From Spirochaetia bacterium (GTDB lineage Bacteria > Spirochaetota > Spirochaetia > SZUA-6 > Bin103), in NCBI GenBank assembly GCA_965208575.1, contig CBDBOV010000004.1, positions 864,001-928,000 of the forward strand: 64,000 nt of DNA, read 5' to 3'. Shown here one piece after another: positions 12,124 through 29,452 of this stretch. The position numbers and the translations under genes are program-made. The notes under the pieces are model-generated. The model was not told where the DNA came from. It made no database searches and worked only from the letters and a program-made list of their open reading frames with translations. Within the stretch, counting starts at the first letter, position 1, and the number at the start of each line of letters is the position of its first letter.

Positions 12124-12155
12124 ACGTCGACCTGCCGTGCCGCAGGCAGACCTCA

Positions 12156-13031
12156 ATGGATACCCGCAACACCAACGAGCACAGTGAGATAGCAGGCGCG
12201 CGCCGGGCCGGCGCGGATTGGCGTGCGCTGACCGTCGGCGACCGGATCCGCTGCCTGGAGCTGGAGGGCTACCTGGTCCTGCCCGACCTCCTGGCACCGG
12301 AGCAGATCGCCGCCATCGGCGCGGAGCTGGCGGCGCTGCCCCTCACCGCCACCGACTACTCGCCGCACAAGCAGACGGCGGACGACCTGCTCGGGCGCGA
12401 CATGCCGCACACCATGGCGGCCATCGCGCTGCCGCGCACGGTCGCGTTCCTCGAGCGCCTGTTCGGAGACGACGTGCTGTGCACCTCCGTCAGCTACCAG
12501 CTGTGCGAACCCGGCCATCCCGGCATCGCCATCCATACCGATGCCCTGCCCTACGGCTCGCGTTCCTCCGGCAGCCTCAGCTCGCCGGTGCTGATGCGCG
12601 TGCTCTACTACCTCGACGACCTCACCCCGGAGTGCTCGCCGTTCAAGGTGGTGCCGCGCTCGCACCTCTCGGTGCATGCCGACGCCAACCCGTACAACCG
12701 CTTCCTGCGCCACGACGAGGAGGTGATGGTCACCTGCGCGGCGGGCTCCGCGGTGGTGATCAACCAGAAGGTGTTCCACGGCAACTACCCCAACTTTGCC
12801 ACCCGCGACCGGCGCATGCTGGCCATCTCCTACCGCCCGGCCTGGGCCGGCCCGGTGACGCAGGTGGCGCCGTGGAACCCCCAACAGCTCGCCGCGCTGC
12901 CGCCGGCGGCGCGCCGCATGTTCCAGGATCCCAACACGCGGCGCATCGACCTCGACGTGCAGAACCGGCCCCGCGGCCTGGACCGCAGCGACGCCGGCAT
13001 CGCTCCTTCCCGCTGGAACGCGGACACCTAG
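12156..13031 (+). CDS. Phytanoyl-CoA dioxygenase (PhyH) family Fe(II)/2OG dioxygenase
   Basis: EGYLVLPDLL, HxD in IHTDA, YYLDDLT...FKVVPRSH, AGSAVV..FHG. Confidence 0.85.
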   Translation: MDTRNTNEHSEIAGARRAGADWRALTVGDRIRCLELEGYLVLPDLLAPEQIAAIGAELAALPLTATDYSPHKQTADDLLGRDMPHTMAAIALPRTVAFLERLFGDDVLCTSVSYQLCEPGHPGIAIHTDALPYGSRSSGSLSSPVLMRVLYYLDDLTPECSPFKVVPRSHLSVHADANPYNRFLRHDEEVMVTCAAGSAVVINQKVFHGNYPNFATRDRRMLAISYRPAWAGPVTQVAPWNPQQLAALPPAARRMFQDPNTRRIDLDVQNRPRGLDRSDAGIAPSRWNADT

Positions 13032-13186
13032 GCGCCTGTCGGACTCGGGCAAGCGCCTGGGCAGGCCGGTGGGCCGGAAGCGCCGCCGCTGGCGGCGAAT
13101 GCGGGGCAACAGCGCTGCTGCGCTCGGTGAATTCTGCGACAACCGAGGGAGACCAGTGCAACCGCGACGACGAAACCACGACGACA

Positions 13187-13215
13187 TTGACAGCTTCACG
13201 CAGCGGGTGCACAGT
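13187..13215 (+). promoter_or_regulatory. Putative sigma70 promoter of the SBP gene
   Basis: TTGACA (13187-13192), 17 bp, CACAGT (13210-13215). Confidence 0.45.
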
Positions 13216-13268
13216 ACCGAGCCATGCTGGCGGGATGTCCGCCCGCCTACACAAACGGAGGTTTTATC

Positions 13269-15248: not shown

Positions 15249-15260
15249 CAGCACGACCAT

Positions 15261-15294
15261 CTGAGGCGGCCCTTTGTATGTAGGGCCGCCTCAG
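15261..15294 (+). terminator. Perfect 13-bp stem-loop downstream of the SBP gene
   Basis: ctgaggcggccct, 8-nt loop, agggccgcctcag. No strong U-tract. Confidence 0.55.
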
Positions 15295-15543
15295 GCTGCG
15301 TACGCAGGGAACCTCGGATGATCCACATCGCGGAGAGGCCCTGCGACCCGTGTCTCTATCCTCAATTTGGTGCCCGTCATTGCTACCCTTCCTTGAGGGC
15401 GGCAGTTGCGCACCCCACGGCGCACAGACCAAATGATCTGCCTCGACGCTTGACTGCCCTCTAAACCGAAGTTCCAGAGCGGGAATCTTGTTAATTCGTT
15501 ATTGATCTGAAAATTGCGCTCAACAGCCGATGTCCGTTACTGG

Positions 15544-16729
15544 CTACACTTGGGCGCTGACCTCCAGGAGATCGAAACAGCGCTGCTGCAGCGCGGTCGG
15601 TTCGCTGTGCATGGTGAACGTGGCGCCGCTATCCACTATCCGCACGCGGTTGGCCGTCAGCGTCCCCAACTCGCTCATCAGGCTGCGAAAGCTGTGCACC
15701 GGCAGACCGTCGTCGGTACGCTTGCTCGCCGCCTTCCGGTGTGCGGCCGGTGAGCGTTCCGCCGGTTGCACCACCGACTCGCGCAGCGCCTCGCCGGCGG
15801 CGCGGTCGTGGTCGTCGAACAGCACCGGCGCCAGCTTGCTGCGCATGTGCCACTCCACGTAGTAGGCCAGCATGCACAGGAACACGTGCGCCCGCACCCG
15901 GTCAGCACTGCGGTGATAGATCGGTCGCACCTTCAGATCCACCGTTTTCATGCTGCGGAAGGCGCGCTCCACCTTGGCCAGATCCTTGTACGCCGTCACC
16001 GTCTGCTCGGCGTCGAACAGCTCCGGCTCCACGTTGGAGCGCACGATGTAGAGCCCGTCCAGTTCTTCCTCGGCCGCGATCTTGTCCAGGTCACGCACGA
16101 ACGAGAACGAGTCGTCGGTGATGGTGGTGGTGAAATGCTTGCCCACCTTGTAGTGGTTGATCACCTTGCCCACCCGCAGGCCGATCGCGGCGGCGCCGCG
16201 CAGCGGCTTTTTGGCGCGCTGCGTGGCCGTCACGATCGGCGTCAGTTCCTCCTCCGTGGAGGCCAGCAACTTCTGCCTCTTGCGCTGCCGTTGCTCGGCC
16301 AGGATCGGGTTGCGGCACACGATCAGCCGCTCGCCGGGGAACTCGGGTGAGCTGATCTCCGCCAGGTCACGCTCGTCGAACATGGTCTGCGCCACTTCGC
16401 CGGCCTCGATCAGCTTGCGGATGGTGGGCGCCCGCAGGGTCGTGATCCAGCGCAGGCCGTCGATCCCCTGCAGGTCCTCGCGGATGCGCGCGCCGGTGAG
16501 CATGCCGCGGTCGCCGACCAGCACGACGCGCTGCAAGCCGAAACGGTTGCGAATCTTGTCGACCTGAGCGGCGACCGTCTTGGGGTCACTGGTGGAGCCC
16601 TCGAATACCTCGACGGCGATGGGACAGCCGTCTGCGGTACACAGCAGGCCGAACACGATCTGCAAGGTGCCGCGTTTGCCGTCGCGGCTGTGACCACGGC
16701 GCGCCAACGGGCAGGTGTGGCCATGGAAG
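15544..16729 (-). pseudogene. IS1634-family transposase, C-terminal part
   Basis: HGHTCPLARRGHSRDGK..LQIVFGLLC...CPIAVEVFEG, VLVGDRGML, YKDLAKVERAFRSMK...RPIYHR..DRVRAHVFLCMLAYY. Confidence 0.9.
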
Positions 16730-16885
16730 TGTCGGCTCTCAGATTGATCTGAGCGGAATGGGGGCGGACGTCTCACGATCGACTGGAGTGGAGGACGGGA
16801 GAGTCGAGGTAAACTGACCAGAAAAACAGGGTAGCTGCCCCAGGTGATGAGAACCGGACAGCTACCCTGAACTAAGGACAGCCGA

Positions 16886-17497
16886 TTGGTACTCCATCTG
16901 GCGGTTGATTTCAAGAGACTTCAGGAACAGGGCAAGGAGTATCGGTGGCCGCGGCCGGAGCGCTGCCTGGAGTGCGGTCGGAGGCGGCCGTGGGGCCATG
17001 GCTATGTCGGACGGTGCTTCGATGGCTGCGGCGAGCCGCTGTGGATGAAGCGCTACCGGTGTCCGGACTGCGGGACCGTGTACACGCTGCGACCGGACAG
17101 CCACTACCGCGGGTTCTGGGCGCCGTGGCGAGTGATTCTGGTAGCCCTGCTGGGCAAGCTGAAGGGTGGTCGCTGGATCGCGCGGGTGAGCCGACAGCGG
17201 CAGCAGTACTGGCGCCAGGGGTTGCGCCGGCAGTTGTTGCTGGAGGGGGTGACCGCGGTGAGCCGGCCGGGCCAGGTTGCGGCCAGTGCGCTGAAGGCGC
17301 TGGTGGTGCGGTTGATCATCGTCAGTACGCATTCGGTGAGCTACCGCCAGATACGGCGAGTGGATGCCGCCCCCGAGTTGGTGCTGGCGGTGCCGGTGGT
17401 GGGCTTTGCGGGACACCTTGATGGCGTCGGGAGCACAGCAGACAGCGCCCTGAAGGAGCCAGGGAATGAGCCGACACCCAGTCACGGGGCACGATGA
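16886..17497 (+). CDS. DUF6431-like zinc-ribbon protein (transposon accessory)
   Basis: CLECG...WGHGY..R......MKRYRCPDCG.VYTLRP. TTG start. First ORF of the element. Confidence 0.7.
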   Translation: MVLHLAVDFKRLQEQGKEYRWPRPERCLECGRRRPWGHGYVGRCFDGCGEPLWMKRYRCPDCGTVYTLRPDSHYRGFWAPWRVILVALLGKLKGGRWIARVSRQRQQYWRQGLRRQLLLEGVTAVSRPGQVAASALKALVVRLIIVSTHSVSYRQIRRVDAAPELVLAVPVVGFAGHLDGVGSTADSALKEPGNEPTPSHGAR

Positions 17498-17778
17498 GCA
17501 CGGTGCTGGTCGCGGGGTGCCGGCTCAGACCGGGCAAGTGGCTGGTGAGCAGTGCAGGAGGACGCCGCCGCGGTGCTGGCGAGCGCCTTTGGCGCTTGGG
17601 TGGCTGTCCGGGCGACGCTGCGGGCAGGGCGCTGGTGGCGCGGCTGATCATGATCGGAGCGGAGAAAATAACGCGAACTGGCGCCTGGGTGACCCCAAGC
17701 CTACCGGATCTTTGCGGTGATCGGCGAACCAATGGGGAGCAAATTGATGCCACCAACACCCCAGGAGGTTCCTCGATC

Positions 17779-19095
17779 ATGGAGGAAGAGAAGAAAAAGC
17801 GGATCGCGTTGTTCCGGTTCGGTGTGATCGCCGGCCTGATCGGGTATGCGAAGCTCGACCAGGGCAAGCGCGAGGCGCGCATCAAGGACCTGGCGGAGCA
17901 GGAATGGAAGATCCCATTCTCGCTGCGCAGTTCGATCAGCCGGTCGACGATCCGCGACTGGCTGCGGCGTTACGAGCACAGCGGCAAGAAACTGGAGAGC
18001 CTGTTCCCGAAGGACCGCGCGGACGCCGGCGTGGGGCGCAGCATCGATCCCGAGACCGAGTTGGCACTGGTCAATCTCCGGCGTGAACTGGCACAGGCGT
18101 CGTTGTCAGTGGTGCTGCAGGTGGCGCGCCGCCGCAATCTCCTGCCGCCCGACTTCGCAGCCTCACGGCAAAGCATCTACCGATTGTTCCGGCGCCATGG
18201 TCTGCACCGGCAGCGGCCCGCGACGCAGGACCGGCGGCGCTTCGAAGCGGAACTGCCGAACGACTTGTGGCAAGCGGATTGCATGCACGGCCCGCGCGTG
18301 AAAAGCGACGGCAAGCTGCGCAAGACGTTTCTGTTCGCCTGCATCGATGATCACTCGCGGCTCATCACCGGCGCCCGCTTCTATCTGCGTGAAAACATCG
18401 ACTGTTTCCAGGACTGCCTGCTGCGGGCGCTCGAAACGCGCGGTCTGCCACGCAAACTGTATGTCGATAACGGCCCCAGCTTTCGCTCCCAACGACTCAG
18501 TTACGCCTGTGCATCGCTGGGCATAGCGCTCCTCTTCGCGACCCCATACACGCCCCAGGGAAAGGGTAAAATCGAGCGCTATTTCCGCACCATACGCACC
18601 CAGATGCTGCCTCTGGTCAGCGATCACGATACCCTCGAGCAGCTCAACGCCCAGCTTGCCGAGTGGCTCGACCACAGCTACCATCAGCGGCTTCACTCCA
18701 GCACCGGGGAGCAGCCCCTGCAGCGCTATCTGCGCCACCTGGAACTGCTGCGGCCTGCGCCCCAGAATGTGCGTGACCACTTCCGCACCATGGTGCGCCG
18801 CAAGGTCGACAAGGATCGTGCCGTCGCCCTCTACGGCAAGCTCTACGAAGCGCCGGTGGGGCTCATCGGGAACACCGTCAACCTGCTCTATCATGAGGCT
18901 GATCCGTCCCGCATCGAGGTGTTCTTCGAAGATCGCTCTTACGGCTTCCTCAGTGAGTTGAACCCCCACGTCAACAGCCGCGTGCGCCGCATCAGCGGCC
19001 ATGAGACCGAGCTCGAGCCGGCGCCGGAGCCGCCCGCTGATGACCCCCAGCCCGGCCCCCGCGGCGGCCAGCTGTTCGAGGAGTCCGACCGATGA
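17779..19095 (+). CDS. DDE transposase/integrase (rve core with Mu-transposase-like C-terminus)
   Basis: RIALFRFGVI, HTH S.STIRDWLRRY, LWQADCMHGP, CIDDHSR, LYVDNGPSF, PYTPQGKGKIERYFRT, YHQRLHSSTGEQP, RRKVDKD. RBS AGGAGG at 17763. The frame is open upstream to ATG 17494. Confidence 0.92.
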   Translation: MEEEKKKRIALFRFGVIAGLIGYAKLDQGKREARIKDLAEQEWKIPFSLRSSISRSTIRDWLRRYEHSGKKLESLFPKDRADAGVGRSIDPETELALVNLRRELAQASLSVVLQVARRRNLLPPDFAASRQSIYRLFRRHGLHRQRPATQDRRRFEAELPNDLWQADCMHGPRVKSDGKLRKTFLFACIDDHSRLITGARFYLRENIDCFQDCLLRALETRGLPRKLYVDNGPSFRSQRLSYACASLGIALLFATPYTPQGKGKIERYFRTIRTQMLPLVSDHDTLEQLNAQLAEWLDHSYHQRLHSSTGEQPLQRYLRHLELLRPAPQNVRDHFRTMVRRKVDKDRAVALYGKLYEAPVGLIGNTVNLLYHEADPSRIEVFFEDRSYGFLSELNPHVNSRVRRISGHETELEPAPEPPADDPQPGPRGGQLFEESDR

Positions 19096-19922
19096 TCGAC
19101 CTCAGACATGCCTTCGGTTTCCAACGCGATCCGTTCCCCCAGGACGTCCCGATCAACGGTCTGTACCCGATCCCGGGCCTGAAAGCGCTCACCGAGCGCT
19201 TTCAGTATGCCCTCGGGCTCGGCCTCATCACCGTCATCACCGGCGAGGTGGGAGCGGGAAAATCCACTTCCCTGCGCCATGTCACGAGCACCCTGCACCC
19301 CGCCGAATACCGTCTCCTGGCGGTCATCGCCACCACCGGCACGCTGCTCGACCTGCTGCGCCAGATCTGCCTGGAGATGGGCACCCCCCCGCGCTCCTCA
19401 CTGGCCGTCCTCAGCCGCACCGTGCGCGACCTGCTGACCGACATCAGGCGCAAGAAGCAGACCCCGTTGCTGGTCGTCGACGAGGCACATCTGCTCCGCT
19501 TCGAGGTGTTCGCACAGCTCCACACTCTCACTCAGTTCGCCTTCGATTCGCAGACCTTGATGCCGATGGTGCTGGCCGGCCAGAGCAGCCTGCTTGACCG
19601 CCTGTTGTTCCATACCTCGCGCCCGCTCGCCTCACGGGTCGTGGGCCGCAGCCACCTCGATGCTCTCTCCCTTGATGACATGCGCGGCTACCTCGACCAC
19701 CATCTGCAGCTCGCCGCCGGGCGGGACACCCAGTCCGCCACAGCGCGGCGCAGCGCCGACCTGCTCAGCGACGAAGCCGCCGTCGCCATCCATCAGGGCT
19801 CCGGCGGGCTCCTGCGGCGCGCCAATCATCTCGCCCGCGGCGCCCTCATGGCGGCCGCTCGCGAGCATTGCTCGGTGGTCGCCGCCGAGCATGTCCGGCT
19901 CGCTGCCACCGAGATTCTGTAG
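19092..19922 (+). CDS. ExeA/TnsC-like AAA+ ATPase
   Basis: FGFQRDPF, Walker A GEVGAGKST, Walker B LLVVDEAHLL, LAGQ, SGGLLRRANHLA. ATGA overlap with the transposase stop. Confidence 0.9.
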   Translation: MIDLRHAFGFQRDPFPQDVPINGLYPIPGLKALTERFQYALGLGLITVITGEVGAGKSTSLRHVTSTLHPAEYRLLAVIATTGTLLDLLRQICLEMGTPPRSSLAVLSRTVRDLLTDIRRKKQTPLLVVDEAHLLRFEVFAQLHTLTQFAFDSQTLMPMVLAGQSSLLDRLLFHTSRPLASRVVGRSHLDALSLDDMRGYLDHHLQLAAGRDTQSATARRSADLLSDEAAVAIHQGSGGLLRRANHLARGALMAAAREHCSVVAAEHVRLAATEIL

Positions 19923-19931
19923 GTCGGTTCC

Positions 19932-20246
19932 GTGATCAACGTCGCTATCAGAAAAATCGCCGGCAGCGACCGCGAATACTTCGCCTACGCCAGGACGTTC
20001 GCCGGTCGCGCCACCTACTTCGTGTATTTCCGTGATGACATCTGGGGCGCCATGGTGCTGCACAACTTCACCGACATGCTGCGCGCCGTGTTCCAGAACT
20101 CACCCGTCAAGCTGACTCTCGTCGAACAGGAACTCTCTCTCAAACATCCTGCCGTTCTCGGCTTCCTGAGACAATCTCCTGAGGACCCCTCAGCACCACC
20201 GACAGGAGATCTCGCCCGCGGCCACCGGCAACCCGGTGCAGAATAA
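19932..20246 (+). CDS. Hypothetical protein (fourth ORF of the transposon)
   Basis: 104-aa GTG-start ORF 9 bp after the ATPase stop, with globular-looking composition. It ends within the right-end repeat region. Confidence 0.6.
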   Translation: MINVAIRKIAGSDREYFAYARTFAGRATYFVYFRDDIWGAMVLHNFTDMLRAVFQNSPVKLTLVEQELSLKHPAVLGFLRQSPEDPSAPPTGDLARGHRQPGAE

Positions 20247-20300
20247 TATGGTGTCCAGATTACCGTGCGAAAAAACAGCAGAATTACGTGAGACCCAACA

Positions 20301-20850
20301 GGAAGTAACTGGAAGTCAGGTCGTACAACATGAGCGTGTTGTCATGCAGATGGCGCTTGGCCAAGCGCTGCTCGATGCCGTGCTGGCGAGCGAGCAGCCA
20401 ATCCATGGCGGCATACAGCTCATTCTCGTCGACGGCTCCCAACTGCAGCAGGTGGCCGAGGGAGGAGACGGCGCTTTCGGGGTTCAGGCCGCGAGCGGTG
20501 GCGAGTTTGGAGCGAGCGTCGACGACGCGAGCGACGATCATGGCGACGACCAGGTCGCGTTCACGGGAGGCGGGACGAGCGACGAGGGAATGGAGGGAGA
20601 GCTTGCGGAGGGAACCGAGGACGGCGGCGACGTGGCCGTGGGGATAGCTGCGCAAGATGGAGAGCAGTTCGTTGGGAGAGCGCAGAGCGATACCGCCGTT
20701 GAGGAGGACGCGCAAACCCTCGACGAGGTGATCGGGCCACTTGGAGAGGTTGGCGATGGTGCGTTTTTTGACCTTGCCGTGCTGGCGGAAGGACTCGCGG
20801 AGGAGGACGGCCGGGGGAGAGTTGCGGTTGGGGACGGTGTCGATGTACAT
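20301..20850 (-). pseudogene. IS1634-family transposase, N-terminal part
   Basis: MYIDTVPNRNSPPAVLLRESFRQHGKVKKRTIANLS, PHGHVAAVLG, ELYAAMDWLL.RQ..IE..LAKRHL, LYDLTSSYF. Confidence 0.9.
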
Positions 20851-21052
20851 GGGCACCCTACGGAGGGAATGGTAGATCATTTAATAATTACATGTCAACC
20901 AGATGAGAGAAAATTAACGCTGAACCACAGGACTATTTACATGGACACGATTTACACCCATGAACACGCTAATTCCTGTAATAGGAAACAGTTACAAGAA
21001 CGGCCTCTCAAACCTCGGTCTAAACAAGCCATATGATCTACTTGCAAAGTGA

Positions 21053-21454
21053 ATGAGCGAGGCTGGAAGCAGCCGGAAAGCACCACCATCCGGCATAGAC
21101 GAAGATACCAGGCATTAACTGGCCACGCTTGCAAGAAGGAGTCGGGCGCGCATTACCGAGTTTCGTCGGGACCGGCCGACGGAATGGCGCCCACAGGAGG
21201 TACGCAACCCCGACGGCCTACTCGCACCGTACTTCACCGATGCCGATGCTTGGGAGTTGATCGCGTCACGGCTGGAGCGCGGCCACCAGGTTGAGGTCGT
21301 CGAGTTGCGCAAACCACCAGGCCGTACCGGGTACGTCATGATGATCAATCTTGGCACGGACGAGATCTATGTGAAGCTGCAGTTGGGAGCCGGATAAATC
21401 ATCGGACGTAGCTTCCACTATTCCAAGCATGATCGAAAGGAACCTAACAAGTGA
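21053..21454 (+). pseudogene. MqsR-like toxin with two in-frame TAA stops
   Basis: MSEAG...DTRH*LATLARR...GYVMMINLGTDEIYVKLQLGAG*IIGRSFHYS...*. TAA at 21116 and 21395. IYVKL...SFH resembles the MqsR/RelE C-terminal core. The final TGA overlaps the antitoxin GTG. Confidence 0.7.
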
Positions 21455-22017
21455 ATCCAACCGATGCCGTACGAGCGACAGACGACAGTTCATTCGGAGA
21501 CCTGACTTGCCCCATCTGTGGCGAAGCTGGCGTGGTCACTTACGATCATCACGACACATTCGAGTACGGATCGGGTGAGGCTGCGGTCACGTTGCAGGTC
21601 GAACTCCCCATTCGCCGCTGCGAAGCATGCGACTTCGAGTTCCTTGATCAAGAAGGAGAACGACTAAAGCACGAGGCCGTGTGCCGACACCTTGGTGTCC
21701 TTACTTCGACTGAGATACGCCAGATTCGCAAACGATACGGGATGACGCGATCCTCATTTGCTGAGTTTACTGGGCTTGGAGAGGCTACTCTGAACCGTTG
21801 GGAAAACGGCGTGGTTATTCAGAATCGAGCCAACGACCGCTATCTGCGGCTTCTTGGTATAGAAGATATATTCCATAGGCTAACAGACTTGCATGCGCGT
21901 ACCAATGCGCCGCTGGAGAAACCAGATTCCACCCAGCGATCTCACTTTCGCGTCCTTAGGGTGTCACCAGACCATCGACGACGTCAGGCTCATTTCCAAC
22001 TCCGAAAGGCAAGTTGA
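21451..22017 (+). CDS. mqsA: MqsA-like antitoxin (zinc finger + XRE HTH) with C-terminal extension
   Basis: CPICG...RRCEACDFEF, EIRQIRKRYGMTRSSFAEFTGLGEATLNRWENG..IQNRANDRYLRLL. Confidence 0.85.
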   Translation: MNPTDAVRATDDSSFGDLTCPICGEAGVVTYDHHDTFEYGSGEAAVTLQVELPIRRCEACDFEFLDQEGERLKHEAVCRHLGVLTSTEIRQIRKRYGMTRSSFAEFTGLGEATLNRWENGVVIQNRANDRYLRLLGIEDIFHRLTDLHARTNAPLEKPDSTQRSHFRVLRVSPDHRRRQAHFQLRKAS

Positions 22018-23867
22018 GTACTATGTATGTCGCAACGTTTTATTCGTTCAAGGGTGGCGTCGGAAGAACTATGGCCCTTGTCAACGTGGCCGTGGAACTG
22101 ACCCGTAAGGGGCGCCGAGTACTTGCCGTAGACTTTGATCTTGAGGCACCGGGACTTGATACTTTCGACCTGGCTCGCCCTAGTGGGGAGTCTCCAGGTG
22201 TAATAGATTTTGTAAGCACCTATGCTAGCACTGGGGCGTCACCAGACGTAGCGCAGTTCATGTTCGAGTGCTCCAACCTAACAAGTGGTGATGGTTCCTT
22301 GTGGATAATGCCAGCGGGTGCACATCGCGACAGCTACGCGACAACGTTCGCAGAGATCGATTGGGCTGATTTATATGAGAATCATGACGGCTACTTGCTG
22401 TTCGAGGATCTAAAGGAACAGTGGAGGGAATTGATCAATCCTGACTACGTCCTGATTGATTCGCGTACCGGCCATACCGACATCGGCGGCATCTGCACTC
22501 GTCAACTTCCGGACGCGGTAGTGGTGCTGTTTTTTCCGAATGCTCAGAATCTTCGGGGATTGACCAAGGTAGTCCACGACATCCGAGCGGAGGAATCCGA
22601 TCCTGCTGAAAGAGCGATCGATCTCCACTTCGTTATGTCCAACGTTCCAGACCTTGACGATGAAGACAAAATCCTCGAAGAGAGCATTGCTTCATTCCAA
22701 ACGAAGCTCGGGTTTCGTGTGGAACCGTTGCTGATCCATCGTTACGATAGCCTATCGCTGCTCAATCAGGTGATCTTTACCAAGGATCGGCCGCGGAGCC
22801 GGCTTGCTCGAGAATATGCCACCCTCGCGATAGAGATTATGCGCCTAAATCCGTTGGACCGGGACGGCGCCCTGATGTATATCGACGGCCTGTCTCGGAA
22901 CAATCGGACCGGTCAAGGTTCCACGAGCCACCGGACAAGCGTCGACGATCACCTGCGAAGAATCGAGACGAACCACTCTTGCGACGGCGAGGTCCTGTAT
23001 CGTGCCGGATCTCTGCGTGCGGAAGACGGCCGATTCGATGATGCGGTCGCGCTATTTGGTTCCGCTATAGATGCAGGTTACCGTGCGCCGGACGTGTTTC
23101 TCAGGAGAGCCGACATTAGACGGTTCGAAAATGATCGCGACGGGGCGAGTATCGATGCTGCTCAAGCTCTTCAATTGTCAGATGCGACAGCTGTACAGGT
23201 GCGACGTGCTCTTGCAATGATCCCGCCGGGGGAACTTGTCGATGTCGCGAACTCACCAGCCATTACTTCATTGTCCCCTGAAGATCGGGTACGAGTCGCT
23301 TCCGACTACAATCGGTCCACGTTCACTGCTGAGACCACGCACAACATACTCCGCCCTCTGCTGAGTGACCCCAGTCTATCATCGGACTTGCGAACTCGAG
23401 TGAGGAATGAATTTATACTTGCGTCAATATCCGTAGGTAGATTCTCCGAGGCAATCACGATCTCTCGTGAAGAAGAGTCGAGTCTAGAAAAAATGGACAT
23501 CCAGTTCTCGTTCAACTATGGGATGGCATTGTGGGGCAAGACGGGACACATAACACAAGATCCATTCGCACGGGTTGTGGATCTTGACCGGCGGCACCCC
23601 AGAGAAGATCCGGGGCCCAACTTCCTGCAGTGCATGTCGATTTCACATTGGGCAGTTGGTGAAGTAAACAGAGCACGTGACGTGCTGGAAAAAGCACGTC
23701 AAATGATCACTCGACGCCCTCGAGAATTTAGTTGCTGGAGATATTCTCACGTCTTGCGACGCGAATTTGATCAGGACATTCAGGAGATCCGTCTGATGAT
23801 CGATGGTGACGATACAGTACTCCCTCGATATATGCGAAGTGAGGGGCATCGTTCACTAATGTACTGA
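22014..23867 (+). CDS. ParA/MinD-type (KGGVGR motif) ATPase fused to a TPR-like helical C-terminus
   Basis: TFYSFKGGVGRT, VLAVDFDLEAPGL, DYVLIDSRTG, then helical repeats (GEVLYRAGSL..EDGRFDDAVALFGSAI; FNYGMALWG). TTG overlaps the mqsA stop; ATG 22023 is an alternative start. Confidence 0.85.
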   Translation: MSTMYVATFYSFKGGVGRTMALVNVAVELTRKGRRVLAVDFDLEAPGLDTFDLARPSGESPGVIDFVSTYASTGASPDVAQFMFECSNLTSGDGSLWIMPAGAHRDSYATTFAEIDWADLYENHDGYLLFEDLKEQWRELINPDYVLIDSRTGHTDIGGICTRQLPDAVVVLFFPNAQNLRGLTKVVHDIRAEESDPAERAIDLHFVMSNVPDLDDEDKILEESIASFQTKLGFRVEPLLIHRYDSLSLLNQVIFTKDRPRSRLAREYATLAIEIMRLNPLDRDGALMYIDGLSRNNRTGQGSTSHRTSVDDHLRRIETNHSCDGEVLYRAGSLRAEDGRFDDAVALFGSAIDAGYRAPDVFLRRADIRRFENDRDGASIDAAQALQLSDATAVQVRRALAMIPPGELVDVANSPAITSLSPEDRVRVASDYNRSTFTAETTHNILRPLLSDPSLSSDLRTRVRNEFILASISVGRFSEAITISREEESSLEKMDIQFSFNYGMALWGKTGHITQDPFARVVDLDRRHPREDPGPNFLQCMSISHWAVGEVNRARDVLEKARQMITRRPREFSCWRYSHVLRREFDQDIQEIRLMIDGDDTVLPRYMRSEGHRSLMY

Positions 23868-23925
23868 AACCTCCCCTTACCTCTACGGAACTGAGACAAT
23901 GAGCCGTGAGGCCAACGGGCGGCGC

Positions 23926-24909
23926 TCATCCTTCTCTTGCACTCGTGCTGTCCAGCTCCATTTTCGTGCGGTAGGCGGGGACTTCGATCATCGGGGGGCG
24001 CTCGACGATGCGGATTTCGTGGGCCAGTTCCTCGTGGCGGCCCTGGTCGACCATGAACTGATTCAGGGTGGTGTTCAGGGCGGGCAGGTCGCCGATGATC
24101 TCCAGCGAGTCGATCCGCTGCAGGAAGGTCTGCAGGATGCCGAACGCCATCCGGCCGAGCGCGTCGGTGGACTGGTTGGTGTGGATGCGCCGGTCCAGGT
24201 CGGTCTGCGCGAAGGCGCCCATGCCCCAGCGGTGGTACACGTCGATGAGGTGCGAGGTCTCCACGCCGTAGCCGACCGGAAACGGGATCTGCTCCAGCAC
24301 CTCGCGGCGCACGGCGTACTCCCCCGACAGCGGCTGGATCAGCGCCGACAACTCGGGGAAGAACAGCGAGAACAGGGGGCGGATCAGGATCTCGGTAACG
24401 CGACCCCCGCCGGACGGACGCAGCCGTCCCGATTCGGCCAGCGGGCGGTCGTAGAACGCCTTGACGTAGGACACCTCCGGCATGCTCAGCAGCGGCCCCA
24501 CCAGGCCGTACACGAAGCGCGGGTGGATGTTGCGGATGTCGGCGTCGACGTACACGATGATGTCGCCGGACAACTGGAATATCGCCTTCCACAGGTTCTC
24601 GCCCTTGCCGCGGTGATGGCCGCACTCCGGCAGGATTTCCGCCGCCGGGTACACGTCCGCGCCGAACGCGCGCGCCACCTCGCGGGTGGCGTCGTCGGAG
24701 CCGGAATCGATCACCGCGATCTCGTCGAGCAGCCGGTGCCGGTCCATCAACTCCGACTTCAGCACCACGATCTCCTTGCCGATGGTGCGCTCCTCGTTGA
24801 GGGTGGGTATGCACAGCGAGATCGACACGCCCGCTTCCCGCTTGCGCCGCTCCAGTTCGGCGACGTCGAACTGGCCGTGATGGAAGGTGTTGCTCGCCAG
24901 CCAGCTCAT
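23926..24909 (-). CDS. gpgS: Glucosyl-3-phosphoglycerate synthase
   Basis: IPTLNEERTIG, VIDSGSDDAT, GKGENLWK, YVDADI, VKAFYDRP, GGRVTE..RP, QPLSGEYA, GYGVE. Confidence 0.9.
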   Translation of the reverse strand: MSWLASNTFHHGQFDVAELERRKREAGVSISLCIPTLNEERTIGKEIVVLKSELMDRHRLLDEIAVIDSGSDDATREVARAFGADVYPAAEILPECGHHRGKGENLWKAIFQLSGDIIVYVDADIRNIHPRFVYGLVGPLLSMPEVSYVKAFYDRPLAESGRLRPSGGGRVTEILIRPLFSLFFPELSALIQPLSGEYAVRREVLEQIPFPVGYGVETSHLIDVYHRWGMGAFAQTDLDRRIHTNQSTDALGRMAFGILQTFLQRIDSLEIIGDLPALNTTLNQFMVDQGRHEELAHEIRIVERPPMIEVPAYRTKMELDSTSAREG

Positions 24910-26090
24910 TCGCAGTAGCCGCCGTCCATGGCCAGCACGATGCCCAGGAGCTGCGCCAGCCCGGTGTAGATCGGCGCGATGCGAACCGCCTCGTTGCGCT
25001 GGCCCATCGACTCGCCGGAAGTAAGCCCCACCGTGACCGCCGGCACGCCCTGGTCGATGAACGCGGACAGCTCGGAGGTGCTCGGCGACAGGCGCGGCGT
25101 GAGCGACAGGCTCTGCATCACGCGCCTCGTGCGGCGCACCAGCGGATGGGTGAACGCGATGCCGCCCGGGCGCCGGCGGGCGAAGATGTTCAAACCGATG
25201 TCGGCGCCGGCCTGCGACGAAACCTCTTCGATGATCTCCGAGATCTCCTGCAGCAGCCGGCGCACGGTGGCGCCCGACTCGCTACGTACCTCGAACTGCA
25301 GCGCGGCGCGGGTGGCGATCGTGCTCGCCGAGGTGCCGCCGTCGATGCGCCCGAGTACGATGGCGGTGCGCGGCCGGTCGGGCGTGGGTATCTCCAGCAT
25401 CCGGGTGATGATGTCGTTGAGCGTGGAGATGGCGCCGCCGGCCCCGAACCGGCTCCAGTCGTATTCCTCCGGCACCTCGCAGGTTATCTCGCCGCGAATC
25501 ATCCCGATCGAGGTGTAGCTGAGCCGCCCGAGCTGCACGCCCTCCACGCACAGGCCGAACTGCAGCGGCAGCTTGGCGTGGTCCAGGAAGAAGCGCACCC
25601 CCTCCAGGTTGCCGCGCCCCAGGCCGCGGCTGCACGCCAGCCCGAGCACGGTGGAGCGCAGAGTCAAACCGAGCCGCTCCAGCACCGCGGGCAGGGCGGC
25701 CACCACGGCGAGACCGAGGGAATTCTCCGCCACCGATGGCCCGATAACCCGCTCCGGCTGCACCATCACCGTGTGATCGACGGTGGCCGCCACCGGCGTG
25801 TCGGTGTGCGCGACCAGCAGGATGTTGCGGTCGGCCGTGCCGTTCTCGCTGCCGCGCAGCACGCCGGCCACGTTGCCCACCTCATCGGTCGAGCAGTCGG
25901 AGTAACCCAGCTCCGCGAACCGCTCCTGCACAAACGCGGCGCGCGCCGCCTCGTCGAAGGTGGGCGCCGGGATTTCGGCGATCATCGCCAGGTTGGCGAG
26001 CAGCACGTCCTGCAGCCCGCGCAGCGCCTCCGGCAGCTCGCCGACCCGCTGCACGATGCTCTCGAACCCTGTGACCGTCCTCTCGTTCAC
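24906..26090 (-). CDS. M20/M25/M40 peptidase-fold protein (metal/catalytic residues partly degenerate)
   Basis: EIPAPTFDE..RA, DEVGNV, LLVAHTDT, GRIDGGTS, EVRSES. Stop overlaps the gpgS start. Start uncertain (ORF open to 26132). Confidence 0.75.
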   Translation of the reverse strand: MNERTVTGFESIVQRVGELPEALRGLQDVLLANLAMIAEIPAPTFDEAARAAFVQERFAELGYSDCSTDEVGNVAGVLRGSENGTADRNILLVAHTDTPVAATVDHTVMVQPERVIGPSVAENSLGLAVVAALPAVLERLGLTLRSTVLGLACSRGLGRGNLEGVRFFLDHAKLPLQFGLCVEGVQLGRLSYTSIGMIRGEITCEVPEEYDWSRFGAGGAISTLNDIITRMLEIPTPDRPRTAIVLGRIDGGTSASTIATRAALQFEVRSESGATVRRLLQEISEIIEEVSSQAGADIGLNIFARRRPGGIAFTHPLVRRTRRVMQSLSLTPRLSPSTSELSAFIDQGVPAVTVGLTSGESMGQRNEAVRIAPIYTGLAQLLGIVLAMDGGYCE

Positions 26091-26159
26091 GCTGCCCGCA
26101 ATGGTACCCGGTGTCCCGCCTCGTGACCACACGGCGTCATCGACTTCTTGATCTGCCCT

Positions 26160-26358
26160 TCAGCAGGCGTTCGGCTTCAGGTCAGCGCTCATGCAACTCG
26201 TCACGGGTCCACTTCGCCAACCCGCGCCGCGACGTGGCGGCCTCGGACAGCGCCAAAGATCCGCAACCGCGGCGCGGCGGCGCTTCCCCATCCCTGCGTA
26301 CGCCTTGAGGAACTGGCGGAGGACGGCGTTCACGGAGTTGTCTTCCTTGCGACCTTGT
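26160..26358 (-). pseudogene. Decayed antitoxin (DUF6364/VapB-like) with a stub of the downstream toxin
   Basis: SVNAVLRQFLKAYAG...AVADL, frameshift, LALSEAATSRRGLAKWTRDELHER*, followed by an overlapping short MSADLKPNAC*. Confidence 0.55.
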
Positions 26359-26385
26359 GGCCGAGAACCGGGCGAAGAAGCCAAG

Positions 26386-26865
26386 TCAGCCGCGACCGAC
26401 CCAGCCGACTCCGTCGCCGGTGTCCTGGCGGATGCGTTCGCTGAGCTGGCCGGTGTGGTGCTGGAGGTGGCGGAGGTTGTAGGCCAGCCGCTCCACCGGG
26501 CCGAACGGCAGCCAGGAGAAGCCCGACTCGGCGGCCAGGTCCAGTGCGGCGATGCGGTTCCGCGCGTGCTCGCGGCAGAATGCCAGGAACTCCAGGATGC
26601 TCGCGCGCGAATAGGGCTGCACTCCGGGCCGGAGATTCTGCGCTTCGTCGCGGTGGCCGCTCCACGGGACGTGCTCGTCCACGGTCCGGAACAGGTACAG
26701 GTTCACGTAGAACAGCGTGTGGTAGGCGATATGCCAGAACCGGTTGACGTGGGCATCGCTGTCCCAGGCGTCGTCCGGGCACGCCCGCACCGCCGCCTCC
26801 AGCATGTCAAGGCCTGCTTGATACTGCGAATCGAACGCCGAACGAATGGAATCTTCTGCTGACAC
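26386..26865 (-). CDS. DinB family protein
   Basis: SQYQAGLDML..AV.ACPD..W, FWHIAYHTLFY, YNLRHLQHHTGQL (His triad). Confidence 0.85.
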   Translation of the reverse strand: MSAEDSIRSAFDSQYQAGLDMLEAAVRACPDDAWDSDAHVNRFWHIAYHTLFYVNLYLFRTVDEHVPWSGHRDEAQNLRPGVQPYSRASILEFLAFCREHARNRIAALDLAAESGFSWLPFGPVERLAYNLRHLQHHTGQLSERIRQDTGDGVGWVGRG

Positions 26866-26919
26866 GCCGCCAATGCTATGTCCTGATCCGCGGATCATCA
26901 AGCCGGTTCAAGGGAGAGC

Positions 26920-26955
26920 TTGTACTTCGCAAACGCGTAAATTACAGTTATGCGT
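26920..26955 (+). promoter_or_regulatory. vapBC promoter with overlapping operator palindrome
   Basis: TTGTAC (26920), 17 bp, TACAGT (26943). Inverted repeat acgcgtaa (26933) / ttatgcgt (26948). Confidence 0.6.
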
Positions 26956-27237
26956 ATGAAAGTAACGGTGTCCACCACTTGGGCCGCACGCAACCTTGGC
27001 GACTGCCTGGCCCGGATCAAGCACACCGGCGATGAGTTCGTGCTGGTCAAGAACGGCAAACCGGTCGCCGAACTCGTGCCGGTCGCAGGTTCGCGCAGGG
27101 CAACCTTGCGCCAAGTCTGGGATGCCCTCGCGAGCATCCGCCCCGACGCCAGCTTCGCAGACGATCTGAGCACGGTCAACGAAGCTGATCGCATCCTGGA
27201 CAACCCGTGGGATTCGTCCTCGACACCTCGGCACTGA
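26956..27237 (+). CDS. Phd/YefM-family antitoxin
   Basis: [17 protein letters not shown]...[21 protein letters not shown] 26950 is an alternative start. Confidence 0.85.
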
Positions 27238-27665
27238 TCCAACTGGAGCGTGCACTCCAAGCGGGGGACTCGGAACGCATGGAGTGGGACGACGAACTGG
27301 TGTTGCCGGCGGTGGTGTGGGCGGAGGCCTTGATCGGCGTTCGAATGGCGGACTCCGCGGCTCGCGCTGCGCGCCGCAGAGCTCACCTGGAGACGATACG
27401 CGCGCACACCGGGATAGAACCGTTCAGCGCGACGGTGGCCGAACACTACGCGGACATCTACGCGGAACTGTCGGCCCGGGGAGCGCTGATCCCGCAGAAC
27501 GACATGGCGGTCGCGGCCACTGCGCGGGAGTTGGGTTTCGGAGTGCTGGTGGGTCCGGCAGACGAGGCCCACTTCAGGCGCGTACCAGGCATGGCGGTCA
27601 AGGTCATCCCGGCGCACGCTCGCAAGCCGGATCAAGGCACGGACCACGGTACGACACGCGCGTGA
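27207..27665 (+). CDS. vapC: PIN-domain (VapC) toxin
   Basis: [36 protein letters not shown]. Overlaps the antitoxin. Confidence 0.88.
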
Positions 27666-27715
27666 CTGGGCGGACCCGACAGGCGGGCGAACCTCGAAGC
27701 AGTGCAAGGGACGGC

Positions 27716-29257
27716 GTGAGCAGCACGCTCCCGATCAACCTCGCCAACCTGCTGCACGGGCGCGGTGTGGAGTCGGCGCGGGTGGAGTTCAAGGCCACCT
27801 GGGATCCGGACACGACCGGGCCGCAGGTGCTCAAGACGATCTGCGCGTTCGCCAACGACTACCACAACCTGAACGGCGGCTACGTGGTCATCGGCGTCGC
27901 CGAACGCGACGGACGTGCCCTCCTGCCGCCGGCCGGTCTTGCGCCCGCCGAGCTGGCGGCGGCGCAGCAGTGGCTGCGCGGCAACTGCAACCGCCTCGAC
28001 CCGCAATACCAACCGCTGCTTTCGCCCGAAGTGGTGAGCGGGCGGCATGTCCTGGTCGTGTGGGCGCCGGCGAGCCAGATTCGCCCGCACCGGGCGCCGG
28101 ACGGCCCGCGCGGACCGCTGCGCTACTGGCTGCGCCTGGGAGCCGATACCGTGGACGCGGAACAGCGGGGTGGACTGCTTCGAGAACTGATCGGGCAGAC
28201 CGCGCGCGTGCCGTGGGACGACCGCCGGGCCGTGGACGCCGGCCTCACCGACCTGCACGAAATGGCGGTCAGGGAGCACCTGCACGAGGTCGGCAGCGGG
28301 CTTACCGAAGAAAACGACGCGGCGGAGATCTACCGCCGCATGGGCATCACCATGCGGGTCAACGACCACGACGTGCCGCGCAACGTCGGACTGCTGTTCT
28401 TCGCGGCCGAACCGGCACGCTGGTTCCGCGGCGCCTGGATCGATTGCGCGCTGTTCGCCGCCGGCGGCACCGGCGACGTGCAGGAGGAGCAGGAGTTTCG
28501 CGGCGGGCTGGCACGACAGGTGCGCAACTGCCTCCGCTACCTGTACGGGCGCTCGCCGGTCCACATGCGCAAGGTGCCGGACCGGATCGAGGCGCGCCGT
28601 TGGCGGGCATATCCCGAGGTGGCGCTGCGCGAGACCCTGGTCAACGCGCTCTATCACCGCGGCTACGAGCCGGACGTGGTGGAGCCGACCAAAGTGTACC
28701 TGTACCCGGATCGCCTGGAGATCATCAGCTATCCCGGCCCGGCCGCGGGGATCGAACCGGAACACTTCGCGATGCGGTCCCCGTTTCCCACGGTCCCTGC
28801 CCGCAACCGCCGCATCGGCGAATTGCTCAAGGAACTGGGACTCGCCGAGGCACGCCTCACCGGGCTGCGCAAGGTGGCTTCCGCGATGGCCGCCAACGGG
28901 TCCCCGGCGCCGCGCTACGACTTCGATGAAGGCCGCACCTACTTTCGCGTCACGCTGCCCGCCCATCCGCAGTACGCCGCTCTTGCCGCGGTCCGCGACG
29001 CCGCCGAACTGCGCGCCATGGGGGAGGCGGACGCGGCGCACCGTCTAATCGCGTCCGCCTGGGGTTCGAACCGGACCTCCGCGGCGCTGGCGGCCGAGTT
29101 GATCCGATCGCACGCCGGGCGCGGCGAACTGGACCAAGCAGAGCGGGTGCTGGAAGCATTCGCCCGGTACCAGAAGGAGGCAGACCAGGAGGGTGCGGCG
29201 GACCTGCGCGAGGCCTTGGAACTCGTGGAGGCGCTCCGGCGCAGCCGGCGAAACTGA
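27716..29257 (+). CDS. Schlafen/AlbA_2 + HATPase_c_4 protein with helical C-terminal tail
   Basis: ESARVEFKATW, ICAFANDYHNLNGGYVVIGV, YPEVALRETLVNALYHRGY, RNRRIGELLKELGLAE. GTG 27716 chosen by similarity to the paralog's N-terminus. Confidence 0.85.
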   Translation: MSSTLPINLANLLHGRGVESARVEFKATWDPDTTGPQVLKTICAFANDYHNLNGGYVVIGVAERDGRALLPPAGLAPAELAAAQQWLRGNCNRLDPQYQPLLSPEVVSGRHVLVVWAPASQIRPHRAPDGPRGPLRYWLRLGADTVDAEQRGGLLRELIGQTARVPWDDRRAVDAGLTDLHEMAVREHLHEVGSGLTEENDAAEIYRRMGITMRVNDHDVPRNVGLLFFAAEPARWFRGAWIDCALFAAGGTGDVQEEQEFRGGLARQVRNCLRYLYGRSPVHMRKVPDRIEARRWRAYPEVALRETLVNALYHRGYEPDVVEPTKVYLYPDRLEIISYPGPAAGIEPEHFAMRSPFPTVPARNRRIGELLKELGLAEARLTGLRKVASAMAANGSPAPRYDFDEGRTYFRVTLPAHPQYAALAAVRDAAELRAMGEADAAHRLIASAWGSNRTSAALAAELIRSHAGRGELDQAERVLEAFARYQKEADQEGAADLREALELVEALRRSRRN

Positions 29258-29452
29258 ATACGGAGTCCAGGCAGCGGTCAAGGCCGCCCAGCCCCCAGCC
29301 TGCCCTCAGCCTGCCCCCAGCCCCAGACGCCCAAGCGCTTGTCCTCGACGCAAGTGGTCACCCGCATCCGCCAGGCTCCGCGCGCGGCCATCGGCAACAC
29401 CGGCGATCCGAGCTTGACCGGCGGCGCGGTCTGTCTCCACGATGCCCGCGTG

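Follow-up and report, generated by a model that had tools for sequence, protein, structure and literature searches.

The window analysed here is a stretch of 64,000 nucleotides from a Spirochaetia bacterium (contig CBDBOV010000004.1, positions 864,001 to 928,000), and the region of interest within it carries three same-strand frames at 21053-21454, 21451-22017 and 22014/22023-23867. GC content over about 20800-23900 was 0.49-0.58 compared to 0.62-0.72 in the flanking DNA, in agreement with the lower-GC block described in the initial annotation. To its left the block borders an unclassified ORF, and to its right a glycosyltransferase gene in convergent orientation. No tRNA genes were found in 12000-30000, no repeats flanking the block and no Rfam families in 20000-24500. 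The features of the locus are listed below in the coordinates of the window.

20880 to 23900, no strand: low-GC block carrying the module
20899 to 20907, + strand: degenerate distal operator-like element CCAGATGAG, from an upstream alignment with 7 homologous loci
21029 to 21037, + strand: proximal conserved element CCATATGAT, which includes a -10-like TATGAT, from the alignment and a motif count
21053 to 21454, + strand: gene 1, MqsR-fold toxin pseudogene of 133 codons, from a translation with X at the stops and the modelled fold of an intact homologue
21451 to 22017, + strand: gene 2, intact MqsA-family antitoxin of 188 aa with a zinc finger and an HTH (TIGR03830, PF15731)
21940 to 22014, + strand: conserved tail end of the antitoxin, residues 164-188, a predicted ATPase-docking peptide, from conservation and complex prediction
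22023 to 23867, + strand: gene 3, intact, a ParA-like ATPase of 614 aa with helical repeats in its C-terminal part (NF047398; AF2 model)
22047 to 22070, + strand: deviant Walker A FKGGVGRT with Arg for the usual second Lys, read from the sequence
22860 to 23708, + strand: presumed sensor made of TPR-like helical repeats, residues 280-562, from helices in the AF2 model

The three genes had been described as translationally coupled through GTGA and TTGA overlaps. Both tetramers are present (21451-21454 and 22014-22017), but use of the GTGA overlap would need read-through of two stop codons in gene 1, and for the TTGA overlap a start of gene 3 at ATG 22023 (MYV..., as in the homologues) is likelier than one at TTG 22014.

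Gene 1 is interrupted by in-frame TAA at codon 22 (21116-21118) and codon 115 (21395-21397), was flagged as "2 TAA" in the genome search and, with these two nonsense codons, is dead in the window. The columns of the stops hold Q in 44/70 and K in 34/70 homologues. Since the invariant residues of the family are kept apart from the two stops, the inactivation looks recent. Sequence searches gave little for this gene: the window product had no match in Pfam (E up to 1), NCBIfam or PADLOC, the 65 intact homologues that make up the family had scattered weak Pfam matches only, and none of these 65 matched the Pfam MqsR model (PF15723) at E up to 1. The gene 1 profile reached a best E of 0.31 against PDB sequences, PADLOC gave no match for one intact homologue, and a Foldseek search of a homologue model against the PDB gave none at E up to 0.001. 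For an intact homologue with 70% identity to the window product, the model (pLDDT 91) was matched best in an all-against-all aligner by E. coli MqsR (3hi2_D, Z 9.6, rmsd 2.4, with 88 residues aligned and a chain of 91 residues), while the next match was RelE1 with a Z of 5.2. On the strength of this model the gene 1 family has an MqsR-type fold, and the MqsR-like toxin proposed earlier was upheld for the fold of the intact homologue but not for the sequence, where a match to MqsR is absent. Candidates for the catalytic residues are Y97, K99, R110 (at least 90%) and H113, which are invariant in the family. The toxin gene was lost recurrently, in five of the 79 assessable loci in addition to the window copy, which indirectly indicates a costly, and hence active, toxin.

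Gene 2 is a member of the MqsA family by its scores against TIGR03830 (74.3 bits, cut-off 61.8) and PF15731 (33.5 bits, cut-off 30), by its HTH and by two CxxC pairs whose zinc-finger cysteines (C20, C23, C57 and C60) are invariant in the family alignment. The family matches stop at residue 135 of 188, and the additional C-terminal tail reported earlier is thus present, although at 53 residues rather than about 45. Within it a variable linker (residues 136-163, 0.31) leads to the tail-end motif (0.49), which has the consensus RFRxLxVxxxxRxxQxxFxLRxAA and includes F182 and L184, both conserved to 90% or more.

The ATPase domain of gene 3 scored 174.9 bits against NF047398 (cut-off 90), and the AF2 model of the protein (pLDDT 86.6, pTM 0.82) matched MinD, Soj and FlhG in the fold of this domain with TM of 0.65-0.77 (normalised to the target). 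Walker A residues K10, G11, G12, V13, G14 and R15 were invariant in 53 sequences, as were D37, D39, P43 and G44 of the sensor-1 DxD with its following PG (VDFDLEAPG) and the Walker B residue D146. Hydrolysis may be changed or lost through the Lys-to-Arg replacement in Walker A. With KGGVGRT instead of KGGxGK[ST], and with 27.5 bits for the ParA_partition equivalog (cut-off 180), the protein falls outside the classical ParABS type. Pfam TPR_14 and TPR_2 matched below their cut-offs, TPR families are precomputed for many of the homologues, and the mean column identity was 0.52 in the repeat region versus 0.77 in the ATPase domain. The description of the third gene as a KGGVGR ParA-type ATPase with TPR-like repeats was confirmed by the NF047398 score, these sub-threshold matches and the helices at residues 280-562. 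Homologues of 778-802 aa were considered as fusions of MqsA to the ATPase and rejected, as their extra ~185 residues are located C-terminally; no Pfam family was matched by these residues in the three homologues checked.

Upstream of gene 1, homologues carry CCAAATGAT where the window has CCAGATGAG, and CAAATGAT was found upstream of gene 1 in 21/70 loci. The proximal element is part of a palindrome in the homologues. In 52/70 loci the 250 nt preceding gene 1 contained the pattern CA[TC]ATGAT, whose background rate is 0.0035 per 250 nt (22 matches in 1.58 Mb), and a -35 TTGA lay 16-19 nt upstream of the proximal element in 25/70 loci. This TTGA is missing from the window in the upstream alignment with the 7 homologous loci. 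A consensus promoter scan of 20700-24100 gave no + strand site, and the one match in the window to the exact operator pattern ATCANNTGAT was inside gene 3 and at chance level. The single reconstructable promoter of the initial annotation was therefore not recovered; with the -35 lost, only the -10-like CCATATGAT remains.

The window module cannot work as a toxin system because gene 1 has two nonsense codons and the -35 is lost. Genes 2 and 3 are both full length with all family-invariant residues kept, and together with the recent look of the gene 1 inactivation this would agree with a role of their own for the surviving antitoxin and ATPase in this genome, either in anti-addiction against incoming copies of the toxin or in regulating other genes. 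Such a role is improbable given the lost -35 and the degenerate distal site, the finding of no second gene 1 copy in a search of the genome, and the expectation that frames stay intact for a while after a recent inactivation. We favour the reading of the locus as a decaying import with little likely effect on the window genome.

The order of gene 1, gene 2 and ATPase was retained in 80/80 loci examined by tblastn (the best 80 of 475 confirmed relatives), and the initial annotation, which had proposed a search for mqsR- and mqsA-like genes directly upstream of the ATPase homologues, was borne out in every one of them. These loci belong to Acidobacteria, Binatia, Spirochaetia, Alpha- and Gammaproteobacteria, Latescibacterota and others. 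The same order was found in four of five IMG/VR loci, with ATPase identities of 35-40%. Across 31 related genomes the gene 1 profile matched exactly the seven with a full-length ATPase, each time adjoining it, and 400 further genomes sampled from the same phylum yielded no gene 1 homologue. The module is a single conserved unit of three genes, and chance adjacency was rejected by these counts (80/80, 4/5 and 7/31). Presence among the relatives is patchy (7/31), and two of the IMG/VR copies adjoin portal and terminase genes in one case and an integrase in the other. Low GC, patchy presence and these phage-like and integrase neighbours are counted in favour of a horizontal acquisition of the locus, as part of the explanation preferred below. 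In 16/27 loci the flanking ORFs that could be named by Pfam were all of housekeeping type, a pattern that gives no clear defence-island signal.

A PADLOC run had been proposed for a defence call. Only the ATPase domain of gene 3 was recognised, as part of a different candidate system, by a match to the middle of PDC-M28B (positions 131-359 in a profile of 438, E 1.6e-32), and genes 1 and 2 matched no PADLOC model. A complete PDC-M28 with A, B and C all matched is present in a genome of the same genus (locus L087). PDC-M28 is another three-gene system, with which the present module shares only the ATPase part of B. A search of literature text for KGGVGR or PDC-M28 returned nothing relevant.

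Compared to E. coli MqsR-MqsA (3hi2), the module has the same toxin fold as judged from the model, a zinc finger and HTH in the antitoxin, and the toxin gene in first position. The E. coli mqsRA promoter carries palindromic sites, and palindromic sites are likewise found at the promoter of the present family. Unlike the E. coli pair, the toxin does not match PF15723, the antitoxin is longer by the 53 residues of its tail, a third gene is obligatorily linked and the operator has another sequence.

ParA-based ternary systems with a captured TA pair have been termed "TA-ParA" in a computational preprint by Li, Burroughs and Aravind of 2026-10-22 (bioRxiv 10.64898/2026.10.19.760177). In the sections of the preprint that treat them, these systems have mostly TPR sensors, include an MqsR-MqsA subtype (BECR) and are assigned a predicted role in phage defence. 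As in TA-ParA of the ConB2 clade, the present module combines a ParA NTPase with the Walker A Lys-to-Arg change and a PG motif behind the DxD, a sensor of TPR type at the C-terminus, and an MqsR/MqsA-type type II pair in conserved operon order. When matched against the text of sections 24 and 26 no difference in architecture was found, and the view in the initial annotation that the architecture was undescribed does not stand, as an MqsR-MqsA subtype is among the TA-ParA systems in the preprint. Beyond the text of those sections, the family features a conserved antitoxin tail with predicted docking to the ATPase, conserved promoter palindromes, recurrent toxin inactivation and a toxin family missed by the Pfam MqsR model. 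The window copy differs from the published description in being pseudogenised. No experimental study of an MqsRA architecture of the TA-ParA type was found in the literature consulted, including the portion of PMC11980606 that was available.

A co-fold of the antitoxin tail with the ATPase-TPR protein had been suggested, and contact between the two was predicted with a complex score of 0.70 against 0.11 for the best control, from an input of a single ATPase monomer and the isolated tail; the site was placed on the ATPase domain and not on the TPR-like repeats. The mark for this score was reached by 116/157 solved complexes and 2/215 mismatched pairs, counts that are approximate since the alignments were those of our own analysis. 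Docking runs shared at least 44% of contacts, with a partner pLDDT of at least 51. The predicted interface comprises residues 164-186 on the tail side and residues 71-76, 114-136, 151-161 and 186-193 on the ATPase side, located at the beta2-beta3 insert, switch II and the end of the helix 174-190, which is taken to be core helix 4. The score could partly reflect likeness to templates because solved complexes of ParA/MinD with peptides exist. The beta2-beta3 insert and core helix 4 form the ParB/MinE surface according to section 10 of the preprint (bioRxiv 10.64898/2026.10.19.760177), and the tail-end peptide is thus predicted to dock on the ATPase domain at a surface of the ParB/MinE type. A conserved tail with predicted binding to the gene 3 protein fits a control of the antitoxin by gene 3.

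In ParA-ParB and MinD-MinE pairs, as in the present prediction, a short basic flexible partner peptide sits on the beta2-beta3 insert and helix 4 near switch II. The present module differs from those pairs in that an antitoxin C-terminus supplies the peptide and the ATPase combines KGGVGR with a sensor domain, and nothing points to a function in segregation or positioning. The predicted partner surface, the conserved upstream palindromic sites and the location of some copies on phage-like or integrative elements could be accommodated by a stability or partition cassette, in which the ATPase and the DNA-binding MqsA would be a ParA-ParB-like pair on the palindromes and the toxin would provide post-segregational killing for a mobile element. 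Most copies are, however, chromosomal, with housekeeping neighbours and chromosome sizes of 3-8 Mb, the module lacks a conserved adjoining replication gene, and a large variable repeat domain is joined to the Lys-to-Arg Walker A of the ConB2 clade, which the preprint associates with conflict systems. A cassette of this type is highly improbable. Within the TA-ParA reading, we tentatively raise the possibility, itself rather doubtful, that the tail is a partner peptide of the ParB/MinE type and that a cycle of the Lys-to-Arg ParA, set by the repeat sensor, decides on the silencing of the MqsR-fold RNase. If true, a TA pair would be gated by partition-ATPase logic and a first concrete mechanism would be available for a large conflict-associated ParA clade.

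In TAC systems SecB protects or folds a tail-bearing antitoxin, and phage proteins can act as triggers through this third protein. Like TAC, of which HigBAC and MqsRA with a SecB-like chaperone are examples, the present module has three genes and a C-terminal extension of the antitoxin that contacts the third protein, here by prediction. Unlike TAC, the third protein has a ParA/MinD-fold ATPase and helical repeats and is unrelated to SecB, which places the module outside that group. A TAC-like chaperone addiction would have the ATPase-repeat protein protect or fold the tailed antitoxin, with its loss or titration destabilising the antitoxin and no nucleotide-driven switching. Besides the predicted binding of the added tail to the third protein, this alternative draws on accounts that TAC systems include some of the mqsRA modules and that the lambda tail protein activates HigBAC by breaking the contact between antitoxin and chaperone (PMC11980606, in the portion available). 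The ParA-clade NTPase in place of a SecB-like protein speaks against it, the invariant K10, DxD and Walker B D146 argue for a retained nucleotide cycle, and the preprint, in its relevant sections, sets TA-ParA apart from the SecB systems as "an entirely distinct theme". Chaperone addiction is therefore unlikely, and the third protein likely works by a nucleotide switch rather than by chaperoning. The chaperone reading overlaps with the one preferred here.

The locus is most plausibly explained as a partly decayed TA-ParA module of three genes that was acquired horizontally, and we regard this, with the mechanism below, as probable. Under this explanation gene 1 would once have encoded an MqsR-fold RNase toxin, and the products of the intact genes would be an MqsA-type antitoxin and autorepressor (gene 2) and a ParA-clade switch ATPase with a TPR-like sensor (gene 3). 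In intact copies the zinc-finger domain of MqsA would hold the toxin, and MqsA would repress the operon at the conserved palindromes overlapping the promoter. Its conserved C-terminal tail is predicted to rest on the ATPase domain, at the surface where ParB and MinE peptides bind ParA and MinD. The repeats may sense a cue, probably a phage or mobile-element product, which would bring the ATPase into another nucleotide or dimer state; this change would act on the antitoxin, free the RNase and arrest the cell. Both the architecture and the switch model agree with sections 24 and 26 of the preprint (bioRxiv 10.64898/2026.10.19.760177), and we infer that intact modules may serve in defence.

TA-ParA is, in the sections of the preprint that cover it, a computational prediction so far, and the present family offers a compact and strictly conserved three-gene example with testable parts. 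These include the predicted docking peptide at residues 164-188, the acidic ATPase surface of E128, D129 and D153, and the operator motif. Intact natural copies exist in many phyla.

Three plus-strand reading frames were located head to tail within a block of low G+C at ~20.8-23.9 kb of the window (0.49-0.58 compared to 0.62-0.72 on both flanks). The initial annotation had described three coupled genes in such a block; the frames and the drop in G+C were confirmed, while the gene 1 frame was found to be broken by two internal TAA codons. Gene 2 begins at a GTG that overlaps the natural stop of gene 1 (TGA, 21452-21454), and the TTG at 22014, a candidate start of gene 3, overlaps the gene 2 stop. 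The ATG at 22023 appears the more likely gene 3 start because homologues begin MYV...

Features of the three-gene module and its left side (window coordinates)
19932-20246, plus strand: ORF of 104 aa, no Pfam match
20284-20880, minus strand: ORF of 198 aa, no Pfam match, abutting the left end of the module
20899-20907, plus strand: distal site CCAGATGAG, degenerate
21029-21037, plus strand: proximal element CCATATGAT, the sole upstream element kept here
21053-21454, plus strand: gene 1, a single frame of 133 codons with two internal TAA
21116-21118, plus strand: TAA at codon 22 of gene 1
21395-21397, plus strand: TAA at codon 115 of gene 1
21451-22017, plus strand: gene 2, 188 aa, intact
22014 (TTG) or 22023 (ATG) to 23867, plus strand: gene 3, intact

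A functional linkage of the three genes was strongly supported, and the observation made in the initial annotation was largely right. Scanning a single genome for each species gave 475 confirmed relatives of gene 3, of which the best 80 (45-62% identity) were kept for locus analysis and came from Acidobacteria, Binatia, Spirochaetia, Alpha- and Gammaproteobacteria, Latescibacterota and others. Homologues of both gene 1 and gene 2 were identified by tblastn in 80/80 of these best loci, so that the proposed linkage of mqsR/mqsA-like genes to the ATPase-TPR homologues was borne out, and the gene 2 frame ended ~140 nt or less from the ATPase start in every one. The same gene order occurred in four of five IMG/VR relatives (35-40% identity), with the match to the fifth confined to the ATPase domain. 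Seven of 31 related genomes, this one included, encode a full-length ATPase; the gene 1 profile matched exactly those seven, each time next to the ATPase, and had no match in the remaining 24, nor was a gene 1 homologue present in 400 further genomes sampled from this phylum.

The architecture had been proposed as undescribed, which no longer holds since the locus fits a description in a preprint of 2026-10-22 surveying ParA-like NTPases in immunity (Li, Burroughs and Aravind, bioRxiv 10.64898/2026.10.19.760177). In the portions of that text available, the ConB2 clade is defined by replacement of the Walker A Lys by Arg and by a PG motif, and ternary systems combine a type II TA pair with a sensor-fused ParA, the sensor being "most commonly TPRs"; BECR RNases "such as MqsR-MqsA" form one of the toxin subtypes. 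The ParA switch is proposed to reorganize the toxin-antitoxin contact once the sensor detects an invader, and these systems are distinguished from the SecB-based TAC systems (bioRxiv 10.64898/2026.10.19.760177). Feature by feature, the window locus matched this TA-ParA (ConB2) description and, as far as those portions extend, is a new, partly dead copy of the recently predicted kind. In the same portions nothing was found on the tail of the antitoxin or where it docks, on the operator motif, or on decay of the toxin, and no experimental work on the three-gene architecture was found in the literature searched, including the part of PMC11980606 available. A literature text search on "KGGVGR" and "PDC-M28" returned nothing relevant. 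In a PADLOC check of the module the gene 3 ATPase domain, and only that domain, was matched by PDC-M28B (E 1.6e-32) while gene 1 was unmatched. PDC-M28 is a different system: a complete one with A, B and C all matched is present in a same-genus genome (L087:2805-6049), where the ATPase domain of B, of the same KGGVGR type, follows an N-terminal stretch of ~130 residues.

The gene 1 product matched no Pfam, NCBIfam or PADLOC model, and Pfam MqsR was matched by none of 65 intact homologues. For a homologue that is intact and shares 70% identity with the window product, a confident model was obtained (pLDDT 91), and the best fold match of this model among 48,161 solved chains was E. coli MqsR (3hi2_D, Z 9.6, rmsd 2.4 A over 88 residues of a 91-residue chain), followed by RelE1 (Z 5.2) and many RelE/ParE-type toxins; Foldseek alone did not find MqsR for this model. 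The term "MqsR-like" is therefore retained for the fold and not for the Pfam family. The gene 1 family comprised 495 cluster representatives (E up to 0.001) out of 1.84 billion, small proteins throughout.

Each TAA in gene 1 is one base from CAA or AAA, and homologues carry Q at codon 22 (44/70) and K (34/70) or R (13) at codon 115. The second TAA removes the strand bearing the invariant G-x-S-F-H motif. Apart from the stops the frame retains the invariant residues of the family, and its inactivation therefore looks recent. Gene 1 and the ATPase are each present in the genome as a single copy. Among the best 80 loci gene 1 was apparently intact in 74, broken in five and cut by a contig end in one. 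The broken copies comprised three frameshifts, one with the N-terminal half missing and a displaced remnant (L062:2922-3080), which consists of the C-terminal third only and lies ~1.35 kb upstream of gene 2 (4439-4996), suggesting an insertion between them. In one same-genus genome a frameshifted gene 1 was accompanied by a TAA in the ATPase gene.

Upstream of gene 1, CA[TC]ATGAT was located within 250 nt in 52/70 loci, compared to 22 matches across 1.58 Mb of sequence from these loci, with TTGA 16-19 nt upstream of its TATGAT in 25/70. A palindrome of ATCAT and ATGAT was identified in 33/71 upstream regions and a second site, CAAATGAT, lay 41-74 nt farther upstream in 19 loci. Across loci the palindromes flank and overlap the putative promoter, a layout that would be consistent with autorepression by the HTH antitoxin. 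In the window the -35 TTGA is lost and ~55 bases are additional relative to homologous loci; a consensus scan found no plus-strand promoter, contrary to the reconstructable promoter first suggested.

Gene 2 belongs to the MqsA family (TIGR03830, 74.3 bits, curated cut-off 61.8; PF15731, 33.5 bits, cut-off 30). Family matches end at residue 135, which confirms a C-terminal extension, of 53 residues rather than the ~45 initially given. Its first part is a linker that varies among homologues (residues 136-163; column identity averaging 0.31), and it closes with a conserved motif, RFRxLxVxxxxRxxQxxFxLRxAA, with F182 and L184 conserved in at least 90%. At residues 4-190 the gene 3 product scores 174.9 bits (cut-off 90) for the NCBIfam domain "KGGVGR-motif variant AAA ATPase"; TPR matches were weak. 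A confident model (pLDDT 86.6, pTM 0.82, built on 53 sequences) comprised an alpha/beta ATPase domain (1-275), which superposes on MinD, Soj, FlhG, BcsQ and NifH, and helical repeats (280-562). Mean column identity was 0.52 in the repeats versus 0.77 in the ATPase domain, as would be expected of a sensor.

The whole ATPase-repeat protein was co-folded with antitoxin residues 130-188 in three runs, which scored 0.51, 0.70 and 0.71 (median 0.70) versus 0.11 for the best control, with at least 44% of contacts in common and partner pLDDT of at least 51. The mark applied was reached by 116/157 solved complexes and 2/215 mismatched pairs, counts that are rough since own alignments were used. Tail residues 164-186 were predicted to contact ATPase residues 71-76, 114-136, 151-161 and 186-193, which places the contact in the beta2-beta3 insert, in the loop of switch II and where helix 174-190 (core helix 4 in our reading) ends. 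The co-fold of tail and ATPase-TPR protein suggested in the initial annotation gave a predicted contact on the ATPase domain, with none in the repeats. Conservation was higher at the contacted residues (0.83) than elsewhere in the domain (0.76), and the contacted set includes the invariant acidic E128, D129 and D153, predicted to lie opposite the basic tail. The docking is a prediction whose score solved ParA/MinD-peptide complexes may have aided. The beta2-beta3 insert and core helix 4 form the ParB or MinE surface in the part of the preprint available (bioRxiv 10.64898/2026.10.19.760177, section 10). We favour, from conservation and one structure prediction, a mechanism in which the antitoxin tail would be parked on this surface of a sensor-coupled ParA switch, and sensing would release the RNase.

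Flanking genes varied among loci with no conserved fourth gene. In a sample of 27 loci (122 flanking ORFs), 11 were flanked by genes for, e.g., a transposase, a DNA methylase, type I restriction-modification, Uma2, a PIF1-WYL helicase, Piwi or PIN, and in the other 16 the Pfam-nameable ORFs were exclusively of housekeeping type. One IMG/VR copy (L100:4581-8425) adjoins phage DNA methyltransferase, portal and large terminase genes, and another (L101) is preceded by an integrase and a replication initiator. Taken together with its low G+C and patchy distribution, this context marks the module as self-contained and mobile. Close relatives among the best 80 span at least six phyla, several of their record titles are sponge-associated (Spongia_Bin9, Poriferihabitans, Poriferihabitaceae) and the gene 1 family was absent from the 400 same-phylum genomes, which suggests exchange within a shared habitat.

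Shortly upstream of the low-GC block are two overlapping plus-strand genes of host-like G+C (17494-19922), one encoding a DDE transposase (rve, rve_3 and Mu-transpos_C domains) and the other an AAA_22 ATPase, which look like a Mu/TniAB-type transposition pair. The ORF at 20284-20880 may be what is left of a different mobile element.

Longer gene 3 products were also observed. Five homologues (P0007, P0011, P0013, P0021 and P0039; 778-802 aa) have an additional ~185-residue C-terminal region, without a Pfam match in the three checked (P0007, P0021, P0039), with an R-x4-H motif that we take to be reminiscent of HEPN RNases; the region could be a fused second effector. The product at L077:5004-7061 (686 aa) has a DUF7662 domain at its C-terminus and that at L065:5001-7847 (949 aa) has additional TPR matches.
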